Below are positions 13,157 to 36,671 of a stretch of 64,000 bases of DNA, one piece after another. The stretch's first letter is position 1. The number at the start of each line of letters is the position of its first letter. The translations under genes and the position numbers were made by a program. Source of the DNA: a virus; the IMG/VR virus record IMGVR_UViG_3300046834_000025, positions 13,834 to 77,833 of that record, one strand, 5' to 3'. The notes beneath the pieces were generated by a model, which searched no databases, was not told the origin of the DNA, and saw only the letters and a list, made by a program, of their open reading frames with translations.

Positions 13157-13342
13157 ATGGCAAAGGGTTCCAGCAGTGGTAGTCGCAGCAGTGGTGGCGG
13201 CTCGCACTCCTACGGCGGCAAGAGCTACCCCAACACGGGTGCCAGTCCCGCCCGTCAGAGCCAGCCGTCCGGCACCACGGTCGGCGGGTACACGAAGGTC
13301 GCGAACCCGGACGGTACGTACCGGATGAAGCCGAGCAAGTAG
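13157..13342 (+). CDS. 61-aa Gly/Ser-rich basic protein
   Basis: AAGGAG RBS, strong codon bias, followed by a hairpin. Confidence 0.7.
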   Translation: MAKGSSSGSRSSGGGSHSYGGKSYPNTGASPARQSQPSGTTVGGYTKVANPDGTYRMKPSK

Positions 13343-13352
13343 CAGTTCCGAT

Positions 13353-13380
13353 GGGGGAGAGGCAACACGGCCTCTCCCCA
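13353..13380 (+). terminator. GC-rich hairpin, possible terminator
   Basis: ggggagaggc/gcctctcccc stem; no U-tract. Confidence 0.5.
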
Positions 13381-13407
13381 CTGCGCCTGGAAGGAGGTGA
13401 TGCCACG

Positions 13408-14761
13408 ATGACCTATGATCCCCGCTTGCACGAATATCAGTTGCGAGCGATCGAACATCTGCTTGGAACCGGCGAACGCGGTTCAGCGTTGTTACTTGAC
13501 ATGGGCCTCGGTTGAAGGCAAGACCGCTACCGTCTTGCAGGCGATCGACGAGCGCCACCTTCCGATGCTTGTGTTGGCACCCAAGAGGGTTGCCGAAGAA
13601 GTGTGGCTGGAACAGCGTGACCTCTGGCGACCTGGTCTGGACATGGTCGTGGCGACCGGCAGCCCGACCACGCGGGCCAACAAGCGTGCCAGAGACGCCG
13701 ATGTCGTCGTCATGACCCGCGACAACGTGGGTGACTTCGGAGACCGGAAGCACCCGTTCCGCACTGTCGTCCTGGACGAGTCGTCCGGCTACAAGGACAA
13801 AGGTACCGCCCGTTGGAGGGCGACTAACAAGGTAGTCAACAAGAGTCACTTCACTTGGGCATTGACTGGCACACCTGCGCCGAACAGCTACATGGACCTC
13901 TGGGCACAGATGTACCTGCTCGACCACGGCAAGCGACTTGAGACCACGTTGGGGGCGTATAGGAACCGCTACTTCGACGCTGGACGCCGGACGAAGATCA
14001 CCAACATCGTCTACGAGTGGTTGCTCAAGCCTGGTGCCAAGGACTCGATCAACAAGAGGCTTGAGGACCTTTGCCTCTCAATGAGAGCCGAAGACTACCT
14101 GACGCTTCCAGAGCTCACCTTCAACGAGGTACGGGTCAAGATACCGCCCGTGGCGAAGCGAGCTTATGAAGACCTGCATAAGGTCTTGGTCGCCGACCTG
14201 ACGCTCATGGGAGGGTATGTCCACACTGCAGCGAACGCGGCTGTCCTCTCGAACCGTCTGCGTCAGGTGTGTGCCGGATTCCTCTACGAGGACGGCAACA
14301 CGGACAACCACACCTGGTTGCACGACGAGAAGATGCGTGCGTTGCAGGAGATCGTCGATGGTACTGGCTCGCCGGTCCTGGTCTTCTACCAGTTCAAGGA
14401 GGAAGAGCGAAAGATCCTCTCTGTCATCGATGGTGCCGTCTCGATCCGCGAGCCAGGCATCATTCCTGCCTGGAACCGTGGAGAGGTACGAGCCCTGGTC
14501 GCACACCCGCAGTCAGCCGGTCACGGTCTCAACCTGCAGCACGGCGGTCACACGATCGTCTACACCACCTTGCCGTGGTCTGGTGAGGAGTGGGAGCAGT
14601 CCGTTCACCGCCTGCACCGCCAGGGACAGCGCAACGCTGTTGTCGTCCACTGGCTCTGGGCAGGCCCGATCGACCGTACCGCCTTCAACACGGTGCAAGA
14701 CAAGAAGTCCGTACAGGACGGGCTCAAGTCGTACCTCCGAGAGACAGACCTGTGGCTATGA
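13408..14761 (+). CDS. SNF2-family (SF2) DNA helicase, reading frame interrupted in Walker A
   Basis: AAGGAGG RBS + ATG 13408 gives LHEYQ...LLDMGLG-stop; next frame resumes GKT, then VLAPKRVA, VVLDESS, LTGTPAPN, GHGLNLQ, RLHRQGQ. Confidence 0.9.
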
Positions 14762-15297
14762 ACTACGATGCAGCACACTATAGTCTTCGCAAGGCGCGAG
14801 GACTCGCTTCCGCATACGCGTGCGTGAACTGCGATGCGCAGGCACGCGACTGGTCATACCAGTACAACGCAGGGGCAGATGAGCTTACAGAAGGTCGGAG
14901 ACGATACTCAGCCAACCCGGATCACTACGTGCCGATGTGTCGGCGCTGCCACAAGGCTTTCGATGCAGAGCATGATCCCTCGATCACAGAAGCTCTAGCA
15001 GCCAGTGGGCGGAGAAACATCGTACACTGCCTAGAGGTGAAGGCTGAACGGTTAGCGACTGACCCTGAATACGCTGCACGAGTTGCCGACCATGCGCGTA
15101 CCATGTGGACACCAGAAGGCAGCCTGGCAGGTGGGCTGGCCGTCATGGAGAAGATCGGTCCAGAACAGTGGAGCGAGAACGCAAGTCGAGGAGGTACAAC
15201 CGTCAGCAAGCAAACACGAGAGTGCGAGTGCGGGTTAATCAGCAACCCCGGAGCAGTTGGAAGACATCTGAGTGCAACAGGGCACTCACTGAAGTGA
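14758..15297 (+). CDS. HNH-type homing endonuclease with C-terminal Cys/His finger
   Basis: CVNC...ARDWSYQY...YVPMCRRCHKAFD; atypical codon use. Confidence 0.7.
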   Translation: MNYDAAHYSLRKARGLASAYACVNCDAQARDWSYQYNAGADELTEGRRRYSANPDHYVPMCRRCHKAFDAEHDPSITEALAASGRRNIVHCLEVKAERLATDPEYAARVADHARTMWTPEGSLAGGLAVMEKIGPEQWSENASRGGTTVSKQTRECECGLISNPGAVGRHLSATGHSLK

Positions 15298-16497: not shown

Positions 16498-16624
16498 GAC
16501 CTGCGCTGAAGAGGCACGCAGGATGGTCGATCACCTGACCACCGAACTCGAGAGGCTGCGAGCGCAAAACGAGCAGCTACACATCGAGATCCAGAACCCA
16601 GAGATGAGGATCGATTGGAACTGA
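16442..16624 (+). CDS. small zinc-ribbon/coiled-coil protein
   Basis: GGAGG RBS; CPVC...H...C. Confidence 0.55.
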   Translation: MSRLICPVCTAPHGTPHRKTCAEEARRMVDHLTTELERLRAQNEQLHIEIQNPEMRIDWN

Positions 16625-17172
16625 TCAAGCCGTGTCGTCGAGGTCTCCACGATCTCGCCGATACGGTCAACGTCTACGTGCAGCCAAGTACCGGCAAGCC
16701 GCAATGCAAGCGGTGCATGGCTGACCGGCGCAAGAGGAACAGGCAGCGCAAGGCAGATCAGTATGCAGCAGTTACCAAAGCCTGGAGAGAACAGAACAAA
16801 GAGAGGAATGCTGCAGTACGACGCGCCAACAAGGAGGGTGTAGCTAAGTGGAACAAGACGTATCGCCAGAACAACCCGGAGAAGTTCCAAGGGTACCAAC
16901 GAAAGAGACGTGCGCTGAAGGCTAGCCTGCCTTCGGAGCCGTACACCAGGCAGGACATCATCGATCGTGATGGAACGGACTGTGGTCTCTGTGGAGAGCC
17001 TGTCGATCTTGAGCTCAAGTACCCAGATCATCTGTCGCCGTCGATCGACCACGTCATCCCGATCACCAGGCAAGGACCAGATACCCTTGCGAACGTGCAA
17101 CTCGCGCACCTGATTTGCAACATACGCAAGCACAACCACCTGGAGGAGAAGGACCTTGAACGAGCGTCCTGA
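16615..17172 (+). CDS. HNH endonuclease
   Basis: CGLC...SIDHVIPITRQG...NVQLAHLICNIRK. Confidence 0.9.
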   Translation: MELIKPCRRGLHDLADTVNVYVQPSTGKPQCKRCMADRRKRNRQRKADQYAAVTKAWREQNKERNAAVRRANKEGVAKWNKTYRQNNPEKFQGYQRKRRALKASLPSEPYTRQDIIDRDGTDCGLCGEPVDLELKYPDHLSPSIDHVIPITRQGPDTLANVQLAHLICNIRKHNHLEEKDLERAS

Positions 17173-35064: not shown

Positions 35065-36155
35065 CCAAGCGCGTACTCCTCAGCGGAGCGGGTGGCTTCG
35101 CTGGCTCGCACGCTCTGCGGCACATCCTGGCGACGACAGACTGGGATGTCGTTGCGCCGGTCACGTTCTCTCACAAGGGTCTCAGCGACCGTATCCGACT
35201 TGCGATGGACGACATGCCGGAAGCCGCCACACGAGTCAAGGTCCTACGCTGCGACCTGGCCGCGTCGATCAGTCCCGTGACGGACGACGCCTTCGGCCAC
35301 ATCGACTACGTGCTGAACTTCGCCTCTGAGTCGCACGTCGATCGCTCCATCCGGCAGCCTGGTCCGTTCATCCGCAACAACGTTGCACTCATGACGCACC
35401 TGCTCGACTGGGCGGCCAGCCGTTCAGAGCTCCAGGCTTTCATCCAGATCTCGACGGACGAGGTGTACGGTCCCGCGCCAGTCGGCTACAACCACCACGA
35501 GTGGCACGACCAGCACTTGCCGTCGAACCCGTACAGTGCGAGCAAGGCTGCGATGGAGGACATCGCCTTCGCGTACTGGCGCACCTACGATCTGCCGATC
35601 GTGATCACGAACACGATGAACCTCGTCGGCGAGACGCAGGATGCCGAGAAGTTCGTGCCGATGACGATCAGCAAGGTTCTCAACGGCAAGCCGATGACCA
35701 TCCACGCCAGCAGGTCCGGCAAGCCTGGCAGTAGGTTCTACCTCCACGCTCGCAACCAGGCTGACGGCGTGCTGCACGTCCTAAAGTACCTCACGCAGGC
35801 AAGGACGGTCGAGTTCCAGGGCAGCACCCGCCTCTCGTGGGATCACGTCACCGACCAGGAGACCGGCGAAAGCCTGCTCCATAGCGAGGGTGGCACCAAG
35901 CCGTTCCGCTACCACATCGTTGGTGAGCGCGAGGTTGACAACCTCGAGATGGCACAGATGATCGCTCAGGCAGTTGGAAAGCCGCTGCAGTATGACCTCG
36001 TGGACTTCCATTCGAGTCGTCCTGGACACGATCTTCGCTACGGGTTGGACGGCGAGAAACTGGCAGGCATCGACTGGGCACCTCCGGTGCCGCTGGACGA
36101 GAGCCTGCAGCGCATGGTGAAGTGGACCCTCGATCACCCGGAATGGCTGCTATGA
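35061..36155 (+). CDS. rmlB: dTDP-glucose 4,6-dehydratase-like NAD-dependent epimerase/dehydratase
   Basis: GAGGFAG, ASESHVDRSI, STDEVYG, PSNPYSASKA, RPGHDLRY. Confidence 0.85.
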   Translation: MTKRVLLSGAGGFAGSHALRHILATTDWDVVAPVTFSHKGLSDRIRLAMDDMPEAATRVKVLRCDLAASISPVTDDAFGHIDYVLNFASESHVDRSIRQPGPFIRNNVALMTHLLDWAASRSELQAFIQISTDEVYGPAPVGYNHHEWHDQHLPSNPYSASKAAMEDIAFAYWRTYDLPIVITNTMNLVGETQDAEKFVPMTISKVLNGKPMTIHASRSGKPGSRFYLHARNQADGVLHVLKYLTQARTVEFQGSTRLSWDHVTDQETGESLLHSEGGTKPFRYHIVGEREVDNLEMAQMIAQAVGKPLQYDLVDFHSSRPGHDLRYGLDGEKLAGIDWAPPVPLDESLQRMVKWTLDHPEWLL

Positions 36156-36671
36156 CCAAACGGTGTCCCCGGTGTACGCGAGATCTTCCACACTCTGAGT
36201 TCGGAAGGGATAGCTGGAAACGAGACGGCCTTCAAACCTACTGCCGGACATGTTGTTCAGCGAGAATGCAAGAGCACAAGATTCGGACAAACAAGCGTTG
36301 TCCAGACTGTGAGGCTCTCATCAGCCCCTATCGAGATCGTTGCCGCAAATGTTCTACTCTGGGTGAGAGAAGTGCTCGTTGGATCAGTGGACGGCAGAGG
36401 GATCGGAAGGGCTACGTTATCCTCAGCATAGCACAAGCACCGGGTGCTCTCAAGACACGACAGGGGGGGACAGATAGCTGAGCACCGATACGTCATGGAG
36501 CAGATCCTTGGTCGCGCTCTCCTCCCAACAGAAACCGTCCACCACAAGAACGGGGTCCGGGATGACAACCGACCTGAGAACCTCGAGCTCTGGTCTACCA
36601 GTCAGCCACCAGGCCAGCGAATCGAGGACAAGCTCCAATGGGCTCGTGAGTTCATCCGGCTGTACGGTTGA
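36152..36671 (+). pseudogene. HNH endonuclease split by a frameshift at a G7 tract
   Basis: zinc-finger half 36152-36481; AEHRYVME...VHHKNGVRDDNRPENLEL half in another frame; G7 at 36463-36469. Confidence 0.75.

Follow-up and report, generated by a model that had tools for sequence, protein, structure and literature searches.

We have studied the gene of an SNF2-related helicase in the window, that is, in the whole 64,000-nucleotide (nt) stretch of viral DNA that covers positions 13,834 to 77,833 of the IMG/VR record IMGVR_UViG_3300046834_000025. The contig behind the window is a 77.8-kb IMG/VR viral contig of a soil phage, estimated by CheckV to be 94% complete. The helicase gene lies on the + strand and its coding sequence is broken by seven nucleotides. 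The 5' segment (13408..13512) is an open reading frame (ORF) that starts at the ATG at 13408 and contains codons 1-35, MTYDPRLHEYQLRAIEHLLGTGERGSALLLDMGLG (MTYDPRLHEYQ...SALLLDMGLG), ending with the codon GGT at 13510-13512, which we call the take-off codon. The coding gap, TGAAGGC (13513..13519, +), consists of a TGA stop at 13513-15, a spacer A at 13516 and the landing codon GGC at 13517-19. The 3' segment (13520..14761, +) restarts at AAG, the Lys of GKT; this remainder, GKTATVLQAIDE..., holds 414 codons in the +1 frame and runs uninterrupted to the stop at 14759-14761. The site thus reads GAC ATG GGC CTC GGT(13510) TGA A GGC(13517) AAG ACC. An earlier note on this DNA had given the sequence at 13408-13522 in the same way and had stated that skipping 7 nt restores DMGLGKT; both statements are correct, the latter letter for letter.

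The same note had taken the rest of the gene to be intact, and this is borne out by the uninterrupted remainder and by its helicase matches. In Pfam the 3' segment matches SNF2-rel_dom (PF00176) with an E-value of 6e-10 and, weakly, PF00271, while in PHROG it matches PHROG 62 'DNA helicase' with an E-value of 9e-108. The features of an SNF2/SF2 helicase are present, and the Walker A motif is whole only when the 7 nt are skipped. In an alignment the 5' segment matches the N-termini of intact relatives. As these read ...LLLDMGLGKTA... across the site, the family motif is recovered exactly once the 7 nt are removed. Among cultured phages the closest relative is Glutamicibacter phage Montesquieu, whose helicase is 45.7% identical; a megablast search of the region against cultured phages gave no match.

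Interruptions at this site are not confined to the window. A query with the single protein found no relatives in IMG/VR, and the helicase-anchored census was made with an alignment query: 80 IMG/VR loci and 80 metagenome loci were collected by homology, and the motif DNA was read in all 160. Thirteen of these genes are interrupted, always within the codons M-G-L-G of D-M-G-L-G-K-T, and no frameshift was found elsewhere in their ~420 codons. All intact genes in the sample hold the exact seven-residue spacing of the motif. Interruption of Walker A is far beyond chance and is not an isolated mutation; its recurrence and its site-specificity are both directly observed.

Montesquieu is itself an example, with a stop-led 9-nt insert in the same motif (GAT ATG TAG CTA ATC GGA CTT GGA AAG ACC) and an HNH gene directly 5' of the helicase. 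Among the 120 best database relatives, several gene calls open out of frame (..WVSVEGKT, ..WGWVEGKT). From these, P0007, P0011 and P0048 (49-60% identity) appear to have the 7-nt gap of the window and P0105 is implied to have a 4-nt gap; for these four and for P0003, which is 97% identical, the gap is deduced from the out-of-frame gene call only. Further, an exact-pattern scan of IMG/VR located GGT TGA A GGC AAA, the identical gap, in L005, a phage of 49% G+C whose protein is ~39% identical to the helicase of the window. The identical 7-nt gap is also present in L278.

Two groups of relatives are unusual. P0121, available as protein only, has an in-frame, stop-free insertion of three residues in the loop (DM-LPI-GLGKT), at the position of the insert in Montesquieu (DM-*LI-GLGKT), and is the sole case in which extra residues are apparently translated. 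L206-L228 (for instance L215, L224 and the complete genome AP025576) form a distant helicase subfamily with 24-28% identity to the protein of the window and the motif EMG-TGKT. They sit behind the same family of HNH genes as the one described below and have similar gaps, such as GGT TAGC ACC and GGC TGA CAA GGC ACA.

Dereplication of the interrupted genes left 109 distinct contexts, representing ~63 insert alleles. The gaps are 1-17 nt long, most commonly 4, 5, 6, 7, 9 or 10 nt, and fall into all three frame classes. In 94 of the 109 contexts (86%) a stop follows directly on the take-off codon, TGA in 48, TAG in 32 and TAA in 14. The remaining contexts have CCA (6), CGG or AGG (3), UCR (3), UGG (2) or CUA (1) in this place, which in our interpretation would be slow or rare codons. 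Where take-off is from a Gly codon (99 contexts), the codon is GGT in 84 and GGC in 15, never GGA or GGG. At the same positions of intact genes the share of GGT is 23.5%, and the excess is highly significant (binomial p 6e-38).

GGT and GGC are the codons of tRNA-Gly(GCC), and the favoured GGT is paired by a weak G.U wobble. When the gap is at least 6 nt long, the first two bases of the landing triplet are those of the take-off codon in 52 of 56 cases, and the commonest pair is GGT to GGC, as in the window. The earlier note had remarked that a single tRNA-Gly(GCC) serves both the take-off codon at 13510 and the landing codon at 13517, with a stop in the A site; the remark stands, and the same architecture recurs in the ~63 independent alleles. 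The take-off codon is number 29-31 in most relatives and 35 in the window, where the 35-residue nascent chain is the conserved N-terminus of the helicase.

Removal of the gap gives x-x-G-x-G-K-[ST] in every parsed case, and the loop is free of extra residues in all of 147 intact genes. As the canonical loop is always restored and no intact gene departs from it, the products of readthrough or of a simple frameshift are evidently not tolerated. This bears on a programmed +1 frameshift of the prfB/Ty1 type at GGU-UGA-A, in which GAA GGC AAG would be read and the loop would be two residues longer. The product, DMGLG-EG-KT with the peptide GSALLLDMGLGEGK, would still contain a G-x-G-K-T string (GEGKT), and shifts of this type are classically stimulated by an A-site stop codon. 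Among the relatives, L112 has a textbook CUU-CGG-C with a 1-nt insert, and the shortest inserts in general resemble classical sites of frameshifting, with CUU-CGG-C suggesting a +1 shift and CUC-UC or CUC-UA a +2 shift. Further, in the 4-5 nt gaps the triplet before AAG is recurrently AGC or GAC, which a +1 or +2 shift would read as Ser or Asp. However, re-pairing from GGU to GUU is poor, and the window has no Shine-Dalgarno-like element 3 nt upstream. The products would also vary between alleles (GEGKT, GSKT, GDKT), whereas an extra residue or a residue other than Gly before the Lys is found in 0 of the 147 intact genes. As a single mechanism, hopping yields the canonical loop for every parsed gap of 1-17 nt, including those that are in frame. 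We therefore regard a +1 frameshift in the window as improbable.

Are the interrupted genes functional? Between close relatives that share the same insert (L176/L274, L155/L323, L309/L313, L317/L318/L320, L224/L226 and L322-L325) the ratio of nonsynonymous to synonymous substitution rates (dN/dS) is 0.018-0.08, and interrupted genes are thus under strong purifying selection. Both half-motifs and a full-length downstream ORF are kept in essentially all members. L010, with a TA insert, and L013, which is intact, have helicase proteins that are 100% identical and DNA that is ~96% identical, the differences clustering from the start codon to the insert. Cultured, plaque-forming phages also carry gaps: in addition to Montesquieu these are Bacillus phage Carmen17, with a 10-nt gap (GGT TGA CGTA GGC AAA), and Paenibacillus phage Pd_22F (GGT TAGGT AAA). 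Both half-motifs must come together in a single polypeptide, and expression therefore requires that the gap be skipped.

In the three cultured phages the helicase is annotated from a downstream ATG (Carmen17 gp3, our L326; Pd_22F QVQ56245, L327; Montesquieu MONT_59, L002). As a consequence, the deposited proteins lack the Walker A loop along with the first 35 to ~75 codons. L051 differs from the other members in having, after GKT, an extra in-frame stop at about codon 292 (..ANGKPV*IAYWF..); its Walker A motif contains a 5-nt tandem duplication, TTAGG TTAGG.

The selection on these genes and the recurrence of the gap also bear on whether the allele of the window is simply dead. It could carry a recent inactivating insertion, for instance from error-prone repair after attack by a nuclease, or it could contain an assembly error, and in both cases the helicase would not be made. 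The contig is a metagenome assembly and contigs from related runs do not cross the site; the HNH gene of the relatives is not adjacent in the window; L051, with its further stop, may be decaying; and cut-and-repair would account for the site-specificity. Against this, the 414-codon downstream ORF is intact, the exact gap occurs in L005 in spite of its low identity, and the same gap is implied in P0007, P0011 and P0048. Random indels would not yield immediate stops, GGT take-offs and matched landings at the frequencies given above. Relatives that share an insert also show low dN/dS, and cultured phages carry such gaps. A recent null mutation, which the earlier note had considered, is for these reasons unlikely, and we give an artefact or null allele little credence.

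The inserts are strongly associated with an endonuclease gene. In a Pfam scan of the flanking ORFs, HNH_3 (PF13392) was found in 7 of 86 near interrupted helicases and in 2 of 147 near intact ones. In L002, L005, L036, L073, L091 and L112, Pfam matches of the individual proteins place an HNH_3 ORF immediately 5' of the interrupted helicase, with an overlap at the helicase start; a profile built from these proteins added L007, plus two intact loci with the same neighbour. Counted in this way, there are seven interrupted and two intact helicases with the HNH gene, and nine interrupted and 146 intact ones without it (Fisher p 6.7e-7).

We also made the reverse census, with the HNH_3 family (alignment A4) as the anchor; GTDB genomes and IMG/VR gave 160 loci. 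In 137 of these the helicase is directly downstream of HNH_3, and 112 of the 137 helicases are interrupted in Walker A, while 25 are intact. Inserts at this site, which the earlier note had thought worth seeking in related phages, are thus present in both censuses, at 13 of 160 helicase-anchored and 112 of 137 HNH-linked genes. The note had also supposed a link to an HNH gene, and in this it was partly right: the inserts are tied to HNH_3, but the neighbour that it had named, at 14758, is weakly HNH-like and nothing links it to them. Likewise, an HNH gene does adjoin the helicase in relatives, immediately upstream, but in the window it is missing from that position.

The 25 intact alleles behind HNH_3 are informative too. 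None of them encodes DMGLGKT, compared with 85 of the 147 genes of the general sample; instead these alleles (among L166-L325) read EMGLGKS, DCGLGKS, ACGLGKT, GLGLGKT and similar. From the sequences, substitution looks like a second route to immunity against the nuclease. Every HNH-linked allele has an insert or substitutions that set its DNA apart from the canonical target, as self-immunity of a homing endonuclease predicts, and the target of the HNH_3 nuclease would accordingly be the Walker A coding DNA.

A comparison of two sister phages suggests how the arrangement moves. Carmen17 has both the HNH gene, whose product is gp4, and the gap, while Wes44 has neither: it is without the ~470-nt HNH gene and has an intact GAT ATG GGA CTT GGG AAA ACG. 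The two are 90-100% identical over most of the region. Just 5' of the HNH gene their identity falls to 54-64%, and in the first ~150 nt of the helicase, motif included, it is 78-86%. This appears to be the picture of a mobile cassette, consisting of the HNH gene, the 5' end of the helicase and the gap, with a co-conversion tract like that described for T4 mobA and gene 60. Presence/absence polymorphism with such a tract is thus seen among the relatives, in Carmen17/Wes44 and in the patch of differences between L010 and L013.

In the window the trace of the cassette is shorter. The motif GGAGGTGAT (13393..13401, +) is a consensus Shine-Dalgarno sequence 6 nt 5' of the helicase start. In HNH-bearing loci the same letters encode the C-terminus of HNH_3 (GGDA) and at the same time serve as the Shine-Dalgarno of the helicase. 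The motif is present in six of the nine interrupted alleles without HNH gene and in 6 of 145 intact alleles (Fisher p 4e-6). Because it codes for the end of HNH_3 in relatives, the copy in the window is a probable relic of the cassette. The simplest reading is that the window represents a 'hit and run' allele, in which the nuclease gene is gone and its tail and the immunity gap would be what is left.

The only match to the cassette HNH profile in the whole contig is at 36122-36671 (+) of the window, ~23 kb from the helicase (E-value 2e-9). This HNH_3-like gene is divided between two ORFs, 36122-36481 and 36444-36671, which overlap but differ in frame, and it may be either a pseudogene with a frameshift or a further site of recoding.

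If the gap is bypassed, its role could still be another one than immunity: it could act as a throttle on expression that keeps the dose of helicase low. This alternative accepts the hop and disputes only the purpose of the gap, and we judge its probability on its own. Bypass is expected to be inefficient, the cassette brings a consensus Shine-Dalgarno, GGAGGTGAT, which suggests that the level of expression matters, and nine interrupted alleles, the window included, persist without the HNH gene. A throttle could, however, sit at any Gly codon, yet all interruptions are in four codons of the most conserved stretch of the DNA. Nor would it account for the tight statistical and physical tie to HNH_3, and the avoidance of DMGLGKT by HNH-linked intact alleles points to a DNA target and not to dosage. 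A throttle is therefore a doubtful explanation of the gap.

Taken together, we consider it likely that the 7-nt gap is an insert which gives immunity to an endonuclease and which ribosomes bypass by a short hop, a small-scale counterpart of T4 mobA/gene 60. The bypass, its efficiency and the target of the nuclease are what we infer here from sequence comparison. The ribosome would arrive with peptidyl-tRNA-Gly(GCC) on GGU (codon 35) and the UGA stop in the A site, where decoding would be slow. The tRNA would then release GGU, held by its G.U wobble, the mRNA would slip by 7 nt, and the same tRNA would re-pair with GGC, after which AAG would be decoded. The product would be a single helicase with a canonical DMGLGKT P-loop and the junction peptide GSALLLDMGLGK. 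The minimal hop element that the earlier note had proposed is in this respect backed by the comparative evidence, that is, by the recurrent architecture and by purifying selection.

As to the origin, the gap would be the immunity scar of a mobile cassette. In the relatives the cassette would have come as the gene of a free-standing homing endonuclease of the HNH_3 family, inserted immediately before the helicase gene, together with an insert ~100 nt downstream that breaks the conserved Walker A DNA, the presumed target of the nuclease. With this DNA broken, we propose, the genome that carries the cassette is not cut. In the window the nuclease gene would have been lost, while its 3' tail GGAGGTGAT and the gap persist.

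With slightly less confidence we extend this explanation to the whole set of alleles. They would then form a natural library of short hops (~63 alleles, 1-17 nt) that are made by ordinary ribosomes in the absence of long-range RNA signals, with near-cognate landings held by two G:C pairs. Such hops would have arisen repeatedly in response to a homing endonuclease whose target is the coding sequence of Walker A, and in the window the gap would have outlived the nuclease.

Several observations weigh against a bypass of this kind. No HNH_3 gene adjoins the helicase in the window. The contig of the window is a metagenome assembly, and the Logan contigs of four runs from related soil and rhizosphere samples never span 13405-13570. 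A stimulatory RNA structure was not found: the fold of 13480-13560 has a z of -0.48 relative to shuffled sequences, and around the gap only a 4-bp GCCU/AGGC pairing can be drawn. Many of the 4-5 nt gaps land on near-cognate AGC, AGT or GAC and not on GGN (for example GGT TAGC AAG, GGT TGAC AAA, GGT TGAGC AAG and GGT CCAGC AAG). Either the rules of re-pairing are looser than in T4, so that two G:C pairs suffice, or some members are decoded otherwise. The cleavage site of the nuclease is deduced from the alleles, a few members may be true pseudogenes, with L051 possibly decaying, and in early stop-hop work synthetic stop-hops in E. coli were reportedly inefficient, at ~1%.

Other ways of expressing the gene were rejected. 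An alternative genetic code is ruled out, as the window needs a change of frame and all three stops are used among the relatives. Transcriptional slippage is ruled out by the lack of a homopolymer run. The same applies to termination-reinitiation and to a split helicase of two chains, since the frame resumes without a start codon and the P-loop would be cut in two. A micro-intron is implausible at 1-17 nt. Further, no gene for a tRNA or suppressor tRNA is present anywhere in the 77.8-kb contig, and a decoder encoded by the phage is thus not the explanation.

The surroundings of the helicase contain a few more features. The ORF at 14758..15297 (+), which overlaps the helicase stop, matches phrog_4160 (function unknown) with an E-value of 1e-18 and phrog_1271 'HNH endonuclease' with one of 7e-4; it has no match to a Pfam family. 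An HNH endonuclease gene of the PF01844 type (16615..17172, +) lies 1.9 kb 3' of the helicase (PF01844 E-value 1e-8; phrog_338 E-value 5e-25) and is outside the HNH family linked to the inserts. Genes of the PF01844 type are not enriched near interrupted helicases, where one of 86 flanking ORFs belongs to it, compared with 5 of 147 near intact ones. Upstream, the ORF at 12719-13342 matches no family. Between its stop (13340-13342) and the Shine-Dalgarno of the helicase there is a 10-bp G+C-rich hairpin at 13353-13379 (GGGGAGAGGC ... GCCTCTCCCC). It is followed by no T-run and is therefore not a canonical terminator.

Our literature search brought up no account of gaps in the Walker A motif of phage helicases, and to our knowledge natural bypass is known from very few systems, namely T4 gene 60 with its homologues and one yeast mitochondrion. 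If the gaps described here are hopped, they represent dozens of variants selected in nature, with different gap lengths, stops and pairs of take-off and landing codons, from which the sequence rules of short hops could be read. Cultured phages, for example the sisters Carmen17 and Wes44, would allow these rules to be tested. If the explanation is true, it would also reveal a general route by which the DNA of an untouchable target such as Walker A can be mutated to escape a homing endonuclease while the protein is left unchanged. On the practical side, current annotation shortens such helicases and drops the ATP-binding loop, as in Carmen17 gp3, Pd_22F and MONT_59.

How does the gap compare with known recoding? 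The +1 sites of prfB (RF2) and Ty1 are CUU-UGA-C and CUU-AGG-C, and in these, as here, the P-site tRNA is made to shift by a stop or a rare codon in the A site. L112 (CUU-CGG-C) and L010, L125 and L217 (CUC +2) resemble this class. In contrast, the window needs a 7-nt move to a non-overlapping codon, and it has neither a Shine-Dalgarno stimulator nor an autoregulatory logic.

The configuration matches that of synthetic stop-hops. Those in E. coli are reportedly the constructs of Weiss et al. 1987 and O'Connor et al. 1989. In such constructs, as here, matched codons flank a stop, the peptidyl-tRNA detaches and re-pairs a few nt further on, and 6-10 nt specify one amino acid. They are, however, laboratory constructs of low efficiency, whereas the configuration described here is natural, recurrent and selected. 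A 2016 review describes E. coli reporters with synthetic stop-hops and with short shifts of +2, +5 and +6, and credits these to its reference 54 (PMC5009743). According to that review, short counterparts of bypassing were "long presumed", and no natural in-frame stop-hop was known (PMC5009743).

The 'byp' elements in the mitochondria of Magnusiomyces capitatus, summarised in PMC5009743, are again many short inserts that bypass makes harmless. They share with the gaps often imperfectly matched triplets and an A-site codon that cannot be decoded. The byp elements are 27-55 nt long and GC-rich. They are scattered over many mitochondrial genes, are read by specialised mitoribosomes and have no link to a nuclease, whereas the gaps are confined to a single motif of one phage gene, would be decoded in bacteria and go together with a homing endonuclease.

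Another parallel is T4 gene 60 with MobA. The mechanism of the bypass in gene 60 is reviewed in PMC5009743, while the MobA element and its homologues, which are topoisomerase gene 60 homologues only, are described by Manning and Atkins (bioRxiv 10.1101/2022.08.31.505936). As in T4, a free-standing HNH gene lies immediately upstream in the relatives of the window, and a non-coding insert is placed a few dozen codons into the next gene, an essential gene of DNA metabolism. Take-off is from Gly, followed by a stop or 'hungry' codon and then by a matched landing codon. The nuclease gene moves along with the insert, and some alleles, of the 'hit and run' kind, have lost the nuclease.

There are also clear differences. 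The gap is 1-17 nt, and 7 nt in the window, compared with 50 nt in T4, and no take-off stem-loop is evident in the window. Here tRNA-Gly(GCC) would act on GGU and GGC, while T4 uses the decoder of GGA; the gene is an SNF2-type helicase, broken in Walker A, and not a topoisomerase subunit; and the nuclease belongs to HNH_3 (PF13392). Hosts include Firmicutes and Actinobacteria, among others, and the phages are not T4-like myoviruses. Finally, there are dozens of independent alleles in place of one conserved cassette, and bypass in them is predicted from their sequence. The system is thus an analogue of the gene 60/MobA cassette and not a member of it.

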